Of a DNA stretch of 15,422 nucleotides, positions 3,164 to 10,280 are shown one piece after another. A program made the translations under genes and the position numbers. Under the pieces are notes generated by a model. The model worked only from the letters and a program-made list of their open reading frames with translations. It was not told where the DNA came from and searched no databases. This stretch comes from Hadesarchaea archaeon (lineage in GTDB: Archaea; Hadarchaeota; Hadarchaeia; Hadarchaeales; Hadarchaeaceae). The stretch's first letter is position 1. Each line of letters begins with the position of its first letter. The DNA lies in contig JAUXAS010000014.1 in NCBI GenBank assembly GCA_030619825.1, positions 1-15,422 on the forward strand, in the 5' to 3' direction.

Positions 3164-4543
3164 TCAAGTCAGAATCAAGCATGCTATATCCATAACATTT
3201 GTTCTAGTAGGTCCTGTTATCAAGAGGTCCCCAATCTCTTTAAAGAAGCTGTGAGAGTCATTTCGCTCGAGATGAAGCACGGGATCGAGTTTAAGGTGCC
3301 TCGCCTTTTCAAGGGTGAAGCTATCCGCGACAGCTCCGGCAGCATCGGTAGGGCCGTCTATGCCGTCCGTGCTGAAGGAGGCTACGGTCGCGTTTCCCAA
3401 GCCCGATATCCCGATTGCGGCACTGAGCACGAGTTCCTGATTGCGCCCGCCTATACCCTCTCCTTTTACCGTCACCGTCGTCTCCCCTCCGGAAATCAGG
3501 AGCGCGGGCCTTGATACAGGCTTGCTTGCTTCTATCACACCTTTCGCAATAGTGGCAAGATGTGCGCCGACCTCCCTCGCTTCGCCCTGCATGGTTGTCG
3601 TGAGTATCGAAACGTTAAAGCCATGAGATTTTCCGACCTCCATAGCTGCTCTGATCGCGTCCGCATTACTCGCTATGATCTCATAGAATGTGTTCAGAAA
3701 ATATTTCCCCCCGGGTTTTGGTGTTTCGGGCACCTTTTCTTCTGCCCCCTTTTTTAAGTGTTTTAAAATGTTTTTCGGCGCCTTCTCAATGAGCCCATAT
3801 TTCTCGATTACTGCCAGTGCATCTGAAAATGTCATCGGATCAGGATAGGTCGGGCCGCTCGCGATGGTATCCAACCTATCCCCGACCACATCCGAGATGA
3901 GCAGGGTGATGACTCTCGCGGGATGGGCTGCTTTGGCCAGCTGGCCGCCCTTTATCCTAGAAAGGTGTTTCCTGACGGCATTCACCTCTTGGATCATCGC
4001 CCCGCTTTTGAGGAGCAATTGGGTTGTTTCCCGCAATTCATCGAGAGAAATCCCCTCCGCAGGGAGAGTGATAAGGGCCGAGCCGCCCCCGCTCAAGAGA
4101 CACACGACGAGGTCCTGAGGCTCGAGGTCGCTAACGAGATTGATCATCTCTTCAGCGCCCTTTACTCCCGCTCTAGTGGGGAGGGGGTGGCCAGCTTCGA
4201 CGAGCTTGATCTTTCTCGTTCGATATACCGATGCCGTGCCCTCGGGGACGTTGACCACGCCGCTCGTGATCCTGTCTCCAAATATCTCCTCAAACACTTC
4301 AGCCATATTCCCGCTCGCCTTCCCACCCCCCACCACGATGATCTTTCCAACCTCTGAAAGGTCAAGCTCGTAAGTTCCAATTTTCAGGCATTCCCCATCG
4401 ATTCTCACCCGACTCCGCATTTTGGAAGAGGGATCGGCGGATTCGATCGCCTTGTTTACAAGCTCGATGAGGATTTGCCTCGCTCGCCGAAGTTCAGGGG
4501 TTTTGGCGTTGTCGAGCAATTGCTTCTCGTTTTTAATCGACAT
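3164..4543 (-). CDS. Glycerate 2-kinase, MOFRL/TtuD (class II glycerate kinase) family
   Basis: Motifs VVGGGKA, EAGHPLP, LLSGGGSAL, NAVRKHLSRIKGG, ISDVVGD...IASGPT, SGGETTV, GGRNQE, TDGIDGPTDAAGA, TGPTRTNVMD. Confidence 0.93.
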   Translation of the reverse strand: MSIKNEKQLLDNAKTPELRRARQILIELVNKAIESADPSSKMRSRVRIDGECLKIGTYELDLSEVGKIIVVGGGKASGNMAEVFEEIFGDRITSGVVNVPEGTASVYRTRKIKLVEAGHPLPTRAGVKGAEEMINLVSDLEPQDLVVCLLSGGGSALITLPAEGISLDELRETTQLLLKSGAMIQEVNAVRKHLSRIKGGQLAKAAHPARVITLLISDVVGDRLDTIASGPTYPDPMTFSDALAVIEKYGLIEKAPKNILKHLKKGAEEKVPETPKPGGKYFLNTFYEIIASNADAIRAAMEVGKSHGFNVSILTTTMQGEAREVGAHLATIAKGVIEASKPVSRPALLISGGETTVTVKGEGIGGRNQELVLSAAIGISGLGNATVASFSTDGIDGPTDAAGAVADSFTLEKARHLKLDPVLHLERNDSHSFFKEIGDLLITGPTRTNVMDIACLILT

Positions 4544-4632
4544 CTGCTCACACTTGCAATATTTGAGCTAAGTTAAATAGAAATGAGGTGTTGATGAAAT
4601 GAGAAATTTCTTAAACGAACAGATTTTCCTTA

Positions 4633-6183
4633 CTACCTTGGTTGGATCCCTATCTTTGGTTTCTTGAAAATTTTTTCATCTATGACTTTAAGTTCGCTCG
4701 AGACGGTTGGAGAAAAATCCATTTTATTGAGGATATCCCTTTCCAAATCGACTCCAGGCGCGATTTCCTCTAACACGAGGCCGTTTTTACCGAGCCTGAA
4801 AACGGCCCTCTCGGTGATGTATAAAACTTCCTTTCCGAGCTTCCTCGCGTACTCGCCGCTGAACGTGATGTGCTCTACGTTTTTCACAAATTTCTTGACC
4901 GATCCATCTTGCAAAATTTTCAATCTCCCACCACCGACTTCTATTTGAAGGCCCTTCGCGGTTAAGGTCCCGCAAAAGACGACTTTTTTGGCATTCTGAG
5001 TGATATCGATAAAACCACCACAACCTGCGAACCTCCCACCAAATTTGCTCACGTTGACATTTCCCTTTTCGTCAACTTGGGCCATACCCAAAAAGCTCAA
5101 GTCCAGTCCTCCCCCCTGATAGAAATCGAATTGATATGGTTGATCGATGAGCGCTTCGTAGTTTATTCCAACCCCGAAATCCAAACCAGAAAGGGGGACA
5201 CCACCTATCACACCTGACTCGACCGTCAGCGTGAATTTTTCGTAAACGTTTTCCTCAATTGCGACATTGGCGACCTCTGTTGCCATCCCGATACCAAGAT
5301 TTATAATATCTCCGGATTTTATTTCCATAGCCGCCCTCCTCCCAATGACTTTTCTCTCGTTGAGCGGCCTAGGTTCAACCTTAGAGGGAGGAATTATCGT
5401 TTCGCCGCTGATCGCTGGATTATAAGATTCACGAACAGTTTGCCACCCGTACTCGGGTTTCGAAGCTACTACAACGTAGTCTACGAGAATACCCGGAATT
5501 TCAACCTTCCTGCTTGGTAGGGATTTAGTAACCTTTTCCACTTGAACGGCCACGGTCCCTCCGCAATTTTTTGTCGCTTGAGCTATGGATAGGTTTTCTA
5601 GGGTCACCCCTTCCTTTTCCATCGATATGTTGCCCTTTTCATCCGAAGTTGTTCCGCGGATTAAAGCAAAATCTACGGGGAAAGTTTTGTAACTCAGATA
5701 TTCTTTGCCATCGATCTCGATCAGTTTGACCATATCTTCCTCTTTCTTGGTGATATCGTTTACTTTACCTCCTTCGACTCGAGGATCTACAAACGTGTAC
5801 AAACCTGTGTGCGTTATCAGATATGGCCTCTTTGCGGCAATATCCCTAAATAATTGAGAAATCACACCTTGTGGAAAGCAGTAGGCGATAACTTTGTTAT
5901 TCATTATCAGTTCACTTGTCAACGGGGCTTTTCCGGAATGAGTAAATATCAATTTTTTAATAAGATGTTCAATACCCAGGAGATCGAATCCCACTTCTTT
6001 TCCCCCGGACTGGCCCGCAGGCTGAACGATCGTCAGATCTCTCGGTTTACCCGTTTTGAGAAATCTGTTCCTTAATGCGTAAAAGAGTTCAAATGGAAGA
6101 TTAGTCGTTGTGAAACCGCCAGTCGCAACTGTATCTCCATCCTTTATGTGATTAATTGCTTCCTCGGCCGTCGCTACCTTCAT
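4633..6183 (-). CDS. Family I acyl-CoA:carboxylate CoA-transferase, fused alpha/beta (YdiF / propionate CoA-transferase type)
   Basis: IKDGDTVATGGF, PQGVISQLFRDIAA, GLYTFVDPR, INLGIGM, TVESG (catalytic Glu motif), QFDFYQGGGLD, NVNVSKFG, YITERAVF, EIAPGVDLERDIL. Confidence 0.92.
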   Translation of the reverse strand: MKVATAEEAINHIKDGDTVATGGFTTTNLPFELFYALRNRFLKTGKPRDLTIVQPAGQSGGKEVGFDLLGIEHLIKKLIFTHSGKAPLTSELIMNNKVIAYCFPQGVISQLFRDIAAKRPYLITHTGLYTFVDPRVEGGKVNDITKKEEDMVKLIEIDGKEYLSYKTFPVDFALIRGTTSDEKGNISMEKEGVTLENLSIAQATKNCGGTVAVQVEKVTKSLPSRKVEIPGILVDYVVVASKPEYGWQTVRESYNPAISGETIIPPSKVEPRPLNERKVIGRRAAMEIKSGDIINLGIGMATEVANVAIEENVYEKFTLTVESGVIGGVPLSGLDFGVGINYEALIDQPYQFDFYQGGGLDLSFLGMAQVDEKGNVNVSKFGGRFAGCGGFIDITQNAKKVVFCGTLTAKGLQIEVGGGRLKILQDGSVKKFVKNVEHITFSGEYARKLGKEVLYITERAVFRLGKNGLVLEEIAPGVDLERDILNKMDFSPTVSSELKVIDEKIFKKPKIGIQPR

Positions 6184-6217
6184 CTTCGACCCCGAATCTT
6201 ACCTTTTTGCTATTTTT

Positions 6218-7183
6218 CTAAACGTATTCTCCGGCACTTATGTTTATCAACTGTCCGGTTATGTAACTCCCTTCGGTCGCCAAAAACGCTACCAACTTCG
6301 CGACTTCCTCCGGTTCCCCTCTCCTACCAAGCGGAATTTTTGATAACCTATCACGGAGCATGCCCTGGGGCATGGCATCGGTCATCCTAGTTTTTATGCA
6401 ACCGGGTAATACTGCATTGCAAAGTATGTTGTACTGCGCATACTCCAGCGCGACCGTCTTTGTAAGTGAATTTACCCCTCCTTTCGCTGCCGCATAGTTT
6501 GCCTGCCCCGTGGCTCCATCGATGGCGCTCATGGAGCTTACGTTTACTATATTTCCCCCGCCCTGCTGGATCATGTAAGGTAGCACTGCCCTAGTGCAGT
6601 TATAAGTTCCAGTCAGATCTACATCGATGACCCTTTGCCACTGCTCTGGAGCCATGTTGACGAGAAGCTTATCTATGTTCATGCCGGCATTATTCACCAA
6701 AACGTCCACTCTGCCCAACTTCTCCACGATTTCCTTCACCATCTTCTCGACTTCCTCGTATTTTGAGACATCGCCCTTGATGAAGATCGCCTCCCTGCCG
6801 CCTTTTTTGATTTCCTCCATAGCTTTCACTCCTTCATCCGGCAAGTCGTGAAAGGCATTCATTACGATGTTAAAACCTCTTTTGGCCAACTCCAAAGCTA
6901 TCGCTTTGCCTATCCCCCTGCTAGCACCCGTAATTAACGCGACTTTGCTGACCTCCTTTTTCTCCTTTATCTCAGGAACGAAGAAGTTGAATTCCCCATA
7001 GTCTGTTACCCTCTTCTCGATTCTCCCCTCCATCCCTACCTTCAAAATGTTGTAGTGCTCATCCTCTATCCTGACCAACTGACGTTTTCCTTTCTCGTCT
7101 TCAACGATTCCGGATTTCGTGGACTTTTTATAAGGAGGCGTTGGGACGGTCACATCCGTATAACTGATTAATTTTACCTTCAT
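6218..7183 (-). CDS. FabG/PhaB-like 3-oxoacyl-CoA reductase (SDR) with a ~75-aa N-terminal extension resembling a DUF35 OB-fold
   Basis: SDR motifs TGASRGIG, LVNNAG, NVSS, GQANYAAAK, PGCIKTRMT, IPLGRRGEPEEVA. Extension KLISYTDVTVPTPPY...GIVEDEKGKRQLVRI...LKVGMEGRIE. The ATG lies 2 nt after the thiolase stop with a GAGGT SD. The OB-fold call is less certain than the SDR call. Confidence 0.88.
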   Translation of the reverse strand: MKVKLISYTDVTVPTPPYKKSTKSGIVEDEKGKRQLVRIEDEHYNILKVGMEGRIEKRVTDYGEFNFFVPEIKEKKEVSKVALITGASRGIGKAIALELAKRGFNIVMNAFHDLPDEGVKAMEEIKKGGREAIFIKGDVSKYEEVEKMVKEIVEKLGRVDVLVNNAGMNIDKLLVNMAPEQWQRVIDVDLTGTYNCTRAVLPYMIQQGGGNIVNVSSMSAIDGATGQANYAAAKGGVNSLTKTVALEYAQYNILCNAVLPGCIKTRMTDAMPQGMLRDRLSKIPLGRRGEPEEVAKLVAFLATEGSYITGQLINISAGEYV

Positions 7184-7185
7184 CT

Positions 7186-8331
7186 TTACCTCTCCAATAT
7201 CGAAACTATCGCAACGGAACCGGTCCCGCCGTGTCCTTCGATTATGGCGGTTTTTCGATCCGGAACCTGTCTCTCACCGGCTTCTCCTCGGAGTTGCAAG
7301 AACATTTCCACCATGGTTCCCACGTGTGTCGCACCCACGGGATGTCCTTTGGCTTTGAGCCCGCCACTCACATTCACGGGGAGAGACCCGTCGAACATGA
7401 CCACGCCCTCTCTGACCAATTTGGCGCCTTCACCTTTCTTGGCAAGACCTAGCGCTTCGTAACACATGGGCTCAACTGGAGTGAAAGCATCGTGGACTTC
7501 TACGATATCTACATCTTTTGGACTCTTCCCCGCTTCTTTGTAAGCCTGATCCGCTGCTCTTTTCGAGCAAAGTAAAAACGTTGGATCCTCCCTCTCTATT
7601 GCCAACAGGTAATCGTGGGCCACGCCCATTCCTTTGATAAAGACCGGCGTGTCGGTATACTTCTTCGGATCGGCGCTCAGCAAGACAGAAGCGGCGCCAT
7701 CACTGATCGTGGAGCAATGGAACAATCTGATCGGATCGGCGATCATTCTCGAGTTCATCACTCCCTCTTTCGTGATATCTTTGTGGAAATGAGCCCACGG
7801 GTTTCTGAATGCATTTTTATGGTTCTTAACCGAGATATCCGCCCAGTCATCTTCCGTGACGTCATACTTGTTGGCGTACAGTCTTATCAGCAAGGCGTAT
7901 GCGCCGGGTTGGGTTATTCCGTACTTTCGCTCCTCGGGAGAGGACCCGTGAGTCAAAAATTCTGTGATTCTGTCGATTCCGAACTTGTTCATCTTCTCAA
8001 AGCCCACGACAAGGACGTTCTTCGCCTCCCCCCTCTCGATCATATTCTTAGCTCGATAGATCGCTATGCTCCCGCTCACGCAGGCCGATTCAACTTTGAA
8101 ACCATAGGCGTCGGGGTTTCCCAAATATTCCCATGCCAAAGTTCCAGTTTGGTGTTGTTCGGAAAAGGCATTGTCTACACAACTCACGATGACACAGTCT
8201 ATCTCTTTGGGAGAAATGCCATTCTCAACGTTTTTCAAACAGCCGTCCATCGCCTCCTTGATGAGATCTGGAGTATCTTGTTCTAACACGCCAAATTTCG
8301 TGTGTCCGTAAGAGACAATTCCCACTTCCAT
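7186..8331 (-). CDS. Archaeal-type (SCP-x-like) thiolase / acetyl-CoA C-acyltransferase
   Basis: VGIVSYGHTKFG, KVESACVSGS (nucleophile Cys), VLVVGFEKM, SVKNHKNAFRNPWAHF, CSTISDGAAS, VEVHDAFT, VNVSGGLKAKGHPVGAT, QLRGEAGERQV. Confidence 0.93.
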   Translation of the reverse strand: MEVGIVSYGHTKFGVLEQDTPDLIKEAMDGCLKNVENGISPKEIDCVIVSCVDNAFSEQHQTGTLAWEYLGNPDAYGFKVESACVSGSIAIYRAKNMIERGEAKNVLVVGFEKMNKFGIDRITEFLTHGSSPEERKYGITQPGAYALLIRLYANKYDVTEDDWADISVKNHKNAFRNPWAHFHKDITKEGVMNSRMIADPIRLFHCSTISDGAASVLLSADPKKYTDTPVFIKGMGVAHDYLLAIEREDPTFLLCSKRAADQAYKEAGKSPKDVDIVEVHDAFTPVEPMCYEALGLAKKGEGAKLVREGVVMFDGSLPVNVSGGLKAKGHPVGATHVGTMVEMFLQLRGEAGERQVPDRKTAIIEGHGGTGSVAIVSILER

Positions 8332-8770: not shown

Positions 8771-9043
8771 TTACCTCCTCCGTTTCACCCGCTCCTCGGG
8801 CCGCCTGACGAGCTTCGCTCCTTCAATTTCGACCTCCTCGCCACCGGGAAGGGTGAACATGAATTTAGAGCTCCCCTTGGGTATGATCTTGGTTCCCTCA
8901 GCCTGCTCGATCACCAGCATGTCGCGCGTCTCGTCGATGATGGTGCCGCGGACGCCGAGCAGCGTGGGATCCGAGCTATTCTCGACCCTGGCTTTGAGCC
9001 CAATGAGCTCATGCCGCATTAAGTTTTGCTTGGTTATCGGCAC
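8771..9043 (-). CDS. rnp1: Ribonuclease P protein component 1 (Rpp29/Pop4)
   Basis: [14 protein letters not shown]...[11 protein letters not shown]...IPKG...[11 protein letters not shown]. Start is probably GTG 9043 (AGGTG SD 6 nt upstream); the alternative is GTG 9052. Confidence 0.93.
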
Positions 9044-9052
9044 ATGCTCCAC

Positions 9053-9361
9053 CTATCTCATGTCGATCATCTCGGGGGAGAAACCCATCCCCACGAGCAC
9101 TTCTCTTACGCGGGCCTTGTGTTTGCCTTGAAGCTCGATCCGGCCCTCTTTCGAGGTCCCGCCGCACGCGAGCTTCGACTTCAAGTTCTTCGTCAGTTCC
9201 TTGATGTCGAGTTGTTTCTCGTCTATACCCTCAACGATGGTCATGATCTTGCCGTATTTTCGTTTTATCGAATATATGTTGATTCGCTGCTGTTCACGGG
9301 CGATTTCTTGACAGACGCAGAGTTCCTTGGGCAAGCCACAGACCTTGCATACCTCTGGCAG
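9053..9361 (-). CDS. sui1: Translation initiation factor aIF1 (SUI1 homolog), probable CTG start
   Basis: (M)PEVCKVCGLPKELCVCQEIAREQQ...KYGKIMTIVEGID...LKSKLACGGTSKEGRIELQGKH. The N-terminal Zn-knuckle CxxC extends upstream of the track's TTG (9334) to CTG at 9361; no in-frame ATG or GTG is available. Confidence 0.92.
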   Translation of the reverse strand: MPEVCKVCGLPKELCVCQEIAREQQRINIYSIKRKYGKIMTIVEGIDEKQLDIKELTKNLKSKLACGGTSKEGRIELQGKHKARVREVLVGMGFSPEMIDMR

Positions 9362-9364
9362 CTC

Positions 9365-9568
9365 TCATACACCTCCTTTTTCTTTCATTATCGTGATGAC
9401 TCGAGCTATCGTGCGGCGGAGTTCGCGGATTCGCGCCGGGTTCTCGAGCGAGCCCCCCGCGGCTACCGTGGCGCGTGACCGAGCGAGTTCGGCCCGTAGC
9501 TCCCGGAGCTTCGCTCGCATCTCCTCGACGTTCATATCTCGGATCTCACTGGGTCTGAGTATCGCCAC
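9365..9568 (-). CDS. rpl29: 50S ribosomal protein L29 (uL29)
   Basis: (M)[11 protein letters not shown]...KLRELRAEL...[19 protein letters not shown]. Probable GTG start at 9568. Confidence 0.94.
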
Positions 9569-10280
9569 TCCCCTCACTCTCCTCGGGTTTGGCTTCTTCC
9601 GCTCGTTCCCCTTCGGCGGGCTTAGCTTCTGCCTTCTCCTCACTCGTTACAATCGCTGGCGCAGCTTTCTCCGGTTTTGGAGCTTCTTCGGCTGCAATTT
9701 TGATCTCGTCGGGCAAGGGGACATCAGGGGACATTATCAGCACTTTTACCCCCGCTATCCCTGGCTTTAGCTTTGCCGCCGCGTAACCGTGACTAACTAA
9801 TTTTTCAGCAGGCTCCCCCGCCTTGCTGAGGTAACCCCGGTAGAAGCGCTGGCTGCGGGTACGCTCCCCAGCTATCCTGCCAGAGATCACAATTTCGACC
9901 CCCCGAGCTCCGGCGTTCACTATCCTGCGCATCGCGCTGTACCCGACCCGCCTTGCACTTATCCCACGCTCGAGGCTGAATGCAATCCGCTTCGCCATGA
10001 CGGGGGCGCAGAGTTCAGGTTTGGTGAGCTCAACGACTTCGATCTGTGGGTTCTCCAGCCCAAATTTCTGGGCTAGTTCGTCGGTGAGGTGCTTTATGCT
10101 CTTCCCCTTGCGCCCGATCACCATCCCGGGCCGCTCGGCGTAAAGTGCGACCCTTGTACCGGTGGGAATCCGCTGGATGTCTGCGCCACCGTACCCCGCT
10201 CGCCCGAGCTCTCGTTCTAGGAACTCCTCGAGCTCCATGTGTTTCAGGCCGAGTTTGATAAAGGTGCGCTCCACGGGCAC
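9546..10280 (-). CDS. rps3: 30S ribosomal protein S3 (uS3)
   Basis: ELGRAGYGG...[17 protein letters not shown] (KH domain)...[12 protein letters not shown]...[12 protein letters not shown] start overlapping the L22 stop; acidic low-complexity C-terminal tail. Confidence 0.96.

Follow-up and report, generated by a model that had tools for sequence, protein, structure and literature searches.

The aIF1 gene is a passenger in a ribosomal protein operon

We analyzed a stretch of 15,422 nucleotides (the window) from a Hadesarchaea archaeon (the host). The minus strand of the window is an archaeal S10/spc ribosomal protein operon with the gene order S3-L29-aIF1-Rpp29-S17. As a sequence-only reading of the window had recognized, the gene for aIF1 (SUI1) is embedded in this operon. 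It is on the minus strand at 9053..9361, consists of 102 codons followed by TAG (9055-9053), and encodes a four-cysteine zinc-knuckle motif at the N terminus. It is a passenger, located between the gene for ribosomal protein L29 (9365..9568, minus strand, GTG start) upstream and that for the RNase P subunit Rpp29 (8771..9043, minus strand, GTG start) downstream. Rpp29 is the second non-ribosomal passenger. Four metabolic genes at 3164-8331 (minus strand), encoding a thiolase, a short-chain reductase with an N-terminal extension, a CoA-transferase and a DUF4147/MOFRL protein, split the operon between S17 and L14. The C-terminal tail of S3, about 60 residues past the Pfam domain, is charged and of low complexity (9546-9700, minus strand).

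The aIF1 frame matched the Pfam SUI1 family (PF01253) with an E value of 1.7e-19 and 70.5 bits (cut-off 25.5). It is the single aIF1 match in the host genome (89% complete), which has no second copy with a normal start. Among the matches listed, the nearest homologues that carry a name bear the labels Hadarchaeaceae, Hadesarchaea or Hadarchaeum. Read from the CTG codon at its 5' end, the frame contains basic loop 1 and the archaeal knuckle CX2CGLPX3C-phi-C, as this motif is given in the available text of PMC6237735; the same text reports that the knuckle of Methanocaldococcus jannaschii aIF1 holds zinc. M. jannaschii aIF1 (PDB 4MO0) aligned with the host protein without gaps, residues 1-102 on 1-102, with Met1 on the CTG codon. 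The host protein shares this full-length, gap-free alignment, the zinc-knuckle motif and basic loop 1 with the characterized proteins of M. jannaschii, Pyrococcus and Saccharolobus. By extension from these orthologues, it would bind the 30S subunit and reject wrong initiation complexes.

A CTG codon behind a Shine-Dalgarno motif occupies the Met1 position of aIF1

Reading along the minus strand, the last codons of L29 contain the Shine-Dalgarno (SD) motif AGGAGGTG (9377-9370). This is followed by TA, the L29 stop codon TGA (9367-9365), GAG and CTG (9361-9359), so that the spacer between motif and CTG (9369-9362) is 8 nt. The L29 stop lies in the aIF1 frame, two codons 5' of the CTG, which excludes any upstream start. 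The sequence-only reading had made the same point and had placed the initiator at CTG 9361, 8 nt past a full SD motif; the positions and the 4MO0 alignment agree with this placement.

The SD motif is complementary to the 3' tail of 16S rRNA as read in four relatives. A search of the host assembly found no 16S 3' tail, and the tails of relatives were used instead. Among canonical starts in the host, SD spacings of 5, 6, 7 and 8 nt occur 44, 14, 11 and 12 times. That is, the spacing of aIF1 is usable in the host but is off the 5-nt peak. Long SD spacing is stated to lower efficiency in the available text of PMC6237735. A predicted RNA fold over the aIF1 start region had nothing notable compared to shuffled sequences (z 0.47).

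The codon is not a sequencing error. The earlier reading had called for a check of C versus A at 9361, and we placed contigs from eight runs of eight studies on positions 9000-9700. Seven of the eight runs bridged 9361 with more than 31 bases on either side, and the other (X16) covers the site with 25 bases on one side. There were no other letters or indels at 9359-9377. Two of the bridging runs, X7 and X11, may be the source of the assembly; C holds in the independent contigs, and CTG recurs in relatives. At base 9651, the window disagrees with all eight runs.

The CTG codon is conserved in the family of the host

We surveyed 66 genomes of the phylum, of which 65 had an aIF1 gene and 64 a readable start. 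In the family of the host (f1, probably Hadarchaeaceae; 45 genomes including the host), the codon at the Met1 position is CTG in 34 genomes of 10 genera and GTG in three genomes of one genus, and the remaining eight have a shorter spacer. None of the 45 has ATG or TTG at this position. In contrast, aIF1 starts with ATG in all 19 readable genomes of the five other families. Thus, the weak start is conserved within the family and not beyond it in the phylum. The outcome in which close relatives all have ATG did not occur.

The 34 CTG genomes, one of which is identical to the host over the region and one of which has Ns upstream, are kin and count as one origin. All 34 have GGAGGTG or a variant with one mismatch at the same distance, and 32 have an in-frame L29 stop at the host position. 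We also examined 63 metagenome loci, leaving 16 that lack the knuckle motif unscored. The 28 closest (at least 79% identity) all have CTG, which in 13 of them immediately follows a stop codon. We built a FastTree phylogeny from a concatenated alignment of 10 ribosomal proteins in 21 chosen genomes, with 1,769 columns and the root placed on family f2. In this tree, CTG was found on both sides of the deepest split in f1, indicating that it is ancestral to the family, with a single origin. The triplet before the aIF1 ATG is CTA or CTG in 12 of the 19 outgroup genomes, which makes loss of the ATG a plausible one-step route to a CTG start.

Conservation around the codon has the pattern expected of a start. 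Among the 34 CTG genomes, 10 different codons precede the CTG, with a stop among them. After the CTG, starting at codon 2, the amino acids are kept and the codons vary, and the CTG itself is invariant. Leu10, for example, uses all six leucine codons, including TTG in 11 of the 34. Conservation of the protein starts exactly at the CTG. The aligned sequences themselves show the codon, where it lies, that it is fixed in the family and that the protein is conserved from it onward.

In the eight other genomes (L153-L156, L162, L163, L182 and L021), the spacer is one base shorter in seven and two bases shorter in one, and the sequences read as if the T of the CTG was lost. The Met1 position is TCG or GCG in all eight. 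The shorter spacer removes the CTG and also puts the triplet that overlaps the L29 stop in frame. This triplet is ATG in five genomes and ATA in two, and about one base separates it from the SD heptamer; the sole candidate in the eighth genome is a GTG inside the SD motif. The three short-spacer genomes included in the tree occupy three separate places, as judged by inspection of the tree. If the overlapping triplets are starts, then aIF1 in these genomes would have gone from one poor start to another.

Downstream starts and recoding do not account for the CTG codon

Based on these results, aIF1 translation very probably initiates at the CUG codon. A standard gene caller starts the protein at the first in-frame ATG, GTG or TTG, which is a TTG at 9332..9334 (minus strand). 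This TTG is preceded by a weak 4-nt SD-like motif, and of 120 aIF1 homologues listed, 45 are called as 93 residues and 29 as 99. However, the TTG encodes Leu10 and is inside the zinc-knuckle motif. As had been pointed out from the window sequence, starting there would cut off the first two knuckle cysteines. The residues before Leu10, these two cysteines included, are conserved with synonymous variation, which contradicts a start at TTG 9334. Furthermore, 17 of the 34 CTG genes have no in-frame canonical codon before residue 29, and the first one can be as late as residue 88. Given also that independent contigs agree on 9361, we see almost no chance that aIF1 starts at a downstream canonical codon or that the base at 9361 is a sequencing error.

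There is also an ATG at 9368-9366 that overlaps the L29 stop and opens an out-of-frame mini-ORF of 24 codons (9294..9368, minus strand). The sequence-only reading had missed this ATG, as well as the off-peak spacing of the SD motif. Ribosomes might start at this ATG and shift frame, or read through the L29 stop to make a fusion, or the mini-ORF might be regulatory. In favor of such recoding, 20 of the 34 CTG genomes have the overlapping ATG, 32 of the 34 have L29 and aIF1 in one frame, and the triplet at the overlap is in frame as ATG in five of the genomes whose spacer is shorter by one base and as ATA in two more. Against it, the overlapping triplet in the rest of the 34 is GTA (6), GTG (4), ATA (2) or another triplet (2), with no start triplet in 8 of the 34, and the mini-ORF varies from 7 to 72 codons, so that neither its presence nor its length is conserved. 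We found neither a conserved out-of-frame AUG with its ORF, as in uORF-type control, nor the single leaky stop, or the conserved upstream start with a shift site, of programmed readthrough or frameshifting. The L29 stop is TAA in 8 of the 34, and tandem stops precede the CTG in one genome and 13 metagenome loci, which excludes readthrough from L29. Recoding also gives no cause for fixing CTG against its synonyms. We regard it as very improbable; taken together, recoding and a downstream start leave only a small chance that CUG is not the initiator.

Start codons of other genes in the host and its relatives

As a control, we compared start codons of other operon genes in 21 loci (the window and 20 chosen relatives; 13 of the 21 are of the CTG type). 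A canonical codon precedes the first conserved residue in 475 of 480 copies of 26 other genes, compared to 7 of 21 for aIF1, and three of the five misses look like broken or cut frames. In the 13 CTG-type genomes, CTG is at the modal start position in 1 of 300 copies of 25 other genes, a set that includes the methyltransferase, L32e, S5 and SecY, for which the start column was ill-defined.

The host lineage is lax about start codons in general. There are 299 SD-led canonical starts among 898 predicted genes of the host (ATG 151, TTG 76, GTG 72); that is, TTG and GTG make up about half. SD-led CTG candidates number four compared to 1.4 expected, and there are a few ACG, ATA and ATT candidates. 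Further SD-led near-cognate candidates lie on the minus strands of contigs C70 (CTG), C80 (ACG), C53 (ACG) and C62 (ATA).

Other initiation factors of the host have varied starts. aIF1A has ATG and aIF2-gamma has GTG at the expected start, and aIF2-beta was not found in the 89% complete genome. aIF2-alpha (C54:4531-5316, plus strand, L381), which is one of the four SD-led CTG candidates, appears to start at CTG, 5 nt past an SD motif. In a survey that read 50 loci of 61 genomes with a match, the aIF2-alpha starts in 35 genomes of f1 were TTG (15), ATG (13), CTG (4) and GTG (3). The start of aIF2-alpha drifts, indicating that a weak start that is merely tolerated reaches TTG easily; that of aIF1 never does. 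The aIF2-alpha CTG thus cuts both ways: CUG appears to be workable in the lineage, yet tolerated weak starts drift and that of aIF1 is fixed.

Two genomes of family f5 (L268 and L269) and three Asgard genomes (L607, L626 and L630) have ATC or ATT at Met1 of Rpp29 and no canonical codon. aIF1 in the two f5 genomes begins with ATG.

Near-cognate aIF1 starts occur in two other groups of archaea

We looked at 120 of about 5,300 knuckle-pattern loci in named genomes. Two had no canonical start and three had only a GTG inside the SD motif. All five are from Asgard archaea or Aenigmatarchaeota, and we sampled these groups separately, leaving out the 10 to 12 lowest-scoring matches in each. In Aenigmatarchaeota, 10 of 52 aIF1 loci had no ATG, GTG or TTG before the first cysteine (9 of 49 once the three seed genomes are left out), with CTG, ATC or ATA there instead, compared to 1 of 189 copies of neighboring genes without a canonical start. 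In Asgard archaea, 15 of 52 aIF1 loci had none (14 of 50 without the seeds), compared to 5 of 174 copies in a neighbor-gene control that takes in 7 of the 15 exceptional genomes, none of them with ATT. The codons at the expected start in the exceptions of the two groups (CTG, ATC, ATA and ATT) are behind SD-like motifs.

Some of these loci have further features. In three Asgard loci (L217, L218 and L273), an ATG right behind the SD motif in two corresponds to ACA in the third, and an ATA is found two codons on in all three, which suggests that the ATA is the aIF1 start. In two others (L613 and L616), the codon expected to start S3 is ATA or ATC, and no canonical one is available. Seven Aenigmatarchaeota loci (L238, L250, L295, L297, L300, L308 and L310) encode an additional N-terminal CxxC pair before the aIF1 knuckle.

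No aIF1 gene without a canonical start was found among 50 Thermoproteota loci, or in the top 30 loci each of Nanoarchaeota, the Methanobacteria phylum and the phylum of genome G192, the last sampled via a record labelled Bathyarchaeia, with proteins that resemble Methanosarcinales loci. Most archaea start aIF1 at ATG, and a CTG start is therefore no pan-archaeal rule. In a separate set of Thermococcales-like aIF1 genes (L435-L460), which resemble that of Pyrococcus and lack the knuckle, the start is GTG in 26 of 26. Usable neighbor controls for this set were L22, S3, L29 and L14, with Rpp29, S17 and L24 dropped because of wrong-frame ORFs. S3 starts with TTG in 15 of 26, and the invariant GTG of aIF1 is thus only suggestive.

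Discussion

Our results indicate that aIF1 of the host has a real and conserved CUG start, and we suggest that it represents, in archaea, a version of a regulatory design known elsewhere. We consider it slightly better than an even chance that the weak codon lets aIF1 limit its own level by physiological negative feedback. A 30S subunit that has newly bound, or has just ended L29 three bases upstream, would be held by the SD motif and would pair initiator tRNA with the CUG. Judging from the biochemistry of aIF1 from other archaea, the factor would hinder full accommodation of the tRNA and destabilize non-AUG complexes. When abundant, aIF1 would cause its own CUG to be rejected, and when it is scarce the CUG would be admitted. 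Such feedback would uncouple the output of aIF1 from that of the heavily translated ribosomal protein genes nearby. The gene-specific fixation of CTG and the near-cognate aIF1 starts elsewhere in archaea are consistent with autoregulation, with the Asgard starts lending weak support. On whether weakness is particular to the aIF1 start, the counts point both ways: CTG is at 1 of 300 neighbor starts, but it is also at 4 of 35 aIF2-alpha starts, and TTG or GTG is at half of the SD-led starts.

Several properties of aIF1 and of archaeal initiation that this proposal draws on have been described. The available text of PMC4705826 states that aIF1 of S. solfataricus discriminates against AUU, and that of PMC6237735 that aIF1 prevents full tRNA accommodation. 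Reinitiation is possible across short intergenic distances (PMC10666635 and PMC6728339, available text). As in the termination-reinitiation described there, the upstream gene ends close by, with 3 nt between the L29 stop and the CTG, and its coding sequence contains the SD motif; this arrangement would permit coupling. The cases described in that text are stop-start overlaps; here, in contrast, the ATG that overlaps the stop lies in another frame, and the codon in the aIF1 frame is near-cognate.

The same weak codon could have other explanations. The main rival, which we consider less probable than feedback, is that the CUG keeps aIF1 at a low and constant ratio to the ribosomal proteins and is insensitive to the level of aIF1. 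aIF1 is a passenger in the S3-L29-aIF1-Rpp29-S17 operon, and the passenger Rpp29 also has weak starts (GTG in the host, ATC or ATT in two Hadarchaeota and three Asgard genomes). The 8-nt spacing, off the 5-nt peak, would be a second static weakening, and a constant ratio accounts for the fixed CTG no less well than feedback. However, TTG, GTG or a weaker SD motif would throttle aIF1 too, and the gene has retained a perfect SD motif with a codon of the class that aIF1 is expected to penalize. In addition, queries with eight operon genes found none of them within 32 Asgard aIF1 loci, and near-cognate starts occur there nonetheless.

Alternatively, ATG might have been lost once and the preceding CTG might have served in a lax lineage, with no selection for a weak codon. 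Half of the SD-led starts of the host are TTG or GTG, aIF2-alpha starts at CTG in four genomes, and the CTA or CTG before ATG in 12 of 19 outgroups provides the one-step route. Such tolerance seems improbable to us. TTG differs from CTG by one transition and is frequent both at Leu10 (11 of 34) and where aIF2-alpha starts (15 of 35), yet in none of the 45 family genomes is the Met1 codon TTG or ATG.

With the feedback proposal, it is natural to ask how often such control arose. We tentatively raise the possibility, to which we give somewhat less than an even chance, that stringency autoregulation of aIF1 arose several times in archaea. The cases would include CUG in Hadarchaeaceae; CUG, AUC or AUA in Aenigmatarchaeota; AUA, AUU or CUG in Asgards; and possibly GUG in Thermococcales. 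They would also include at least three switches within the host's family, in which the CUG was given up for an AUG or AUA that shares bases with the L29 stop and is crowded against the SD motif. An AUG or AUA crowded in this way would be the archaeal form of the poor context of eIF1.

Relation to infC and eIF1

The bacterial gene for IF3, infC, is co-transcribed with ribosomal protein genes. As with infC, the mRNA of a fidelity factor has a near-cognate start of its own, and a low level of the factor would relax stringency and raise synthesis. The two differ in that the fold of IF3 is unrelated to SUI1 and in that the aIF1 codon is CUG and lineage-restricted in archaea. Feedback has been shown for infC in bacteria and is a proposal for aIF1. 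Eukaryotic eIF1/SUI1 is the orthologous factor, and the same negative-feedback logic is proposed for aIF1. Its autoregulation through a poor AUG context was reportedly described by Ivanov et al. in 2010. eIF1 keeps its AUG in a weakened context and relies on scanning, whereas aIF1 has a non-AUG codon behind an SD motif in a polycistronic operon. The available text of PMC4705826 likewise describes autoregulation of IF3 through its AUU start and of eIF1 through poor context, in agreement with what the sequence-only reading had taken as established, and leaves open a control role for non-AUG starts in archaea. The eIF1 loop is also discussed in PMC6237735. Because the logic matches that of infC and eIF1, we claim no new principle.

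In the open-access literature searched, we found no description of a non-canonical start or autoregulation of archaeal aIF1. Neither is described for the characterized proteins of Methanocaldococcus, Pyrococcus and Saccharolobus in the text available, and term searches of the available text of two reviews (PMC7531240 and PMC6412873) found neither. The available text of PMC8211752 mentions only a possible frameshift in the aIF1 gene of Sulfolobus solfataricus. Table S2 of PMC6237735, with 744 aIF1 sequences, could bear on this point.

A conserved natural CUG on aIF1 names an mRNA and a one-base change by which feedback in archaea could be probed, and a reconstituted Pyrococcus initiation system already exists, according to the available text of PMC6237735. 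If the proposal is correct, one homeostatic logic, that of self-limiting fidelity factors, would operate in all three domains, and the Asgard cases would bear on the origin of the eukaryotic eIF1 loop. Whatever the mechanism, standard gene callers truncate aIF1, which then loses half of its zinc knuckle. Of the 120 homologues listed, 75 are 93-99 residues long, and some entries labelled Hadarchaeota at NCBI are already called at 102 residues.
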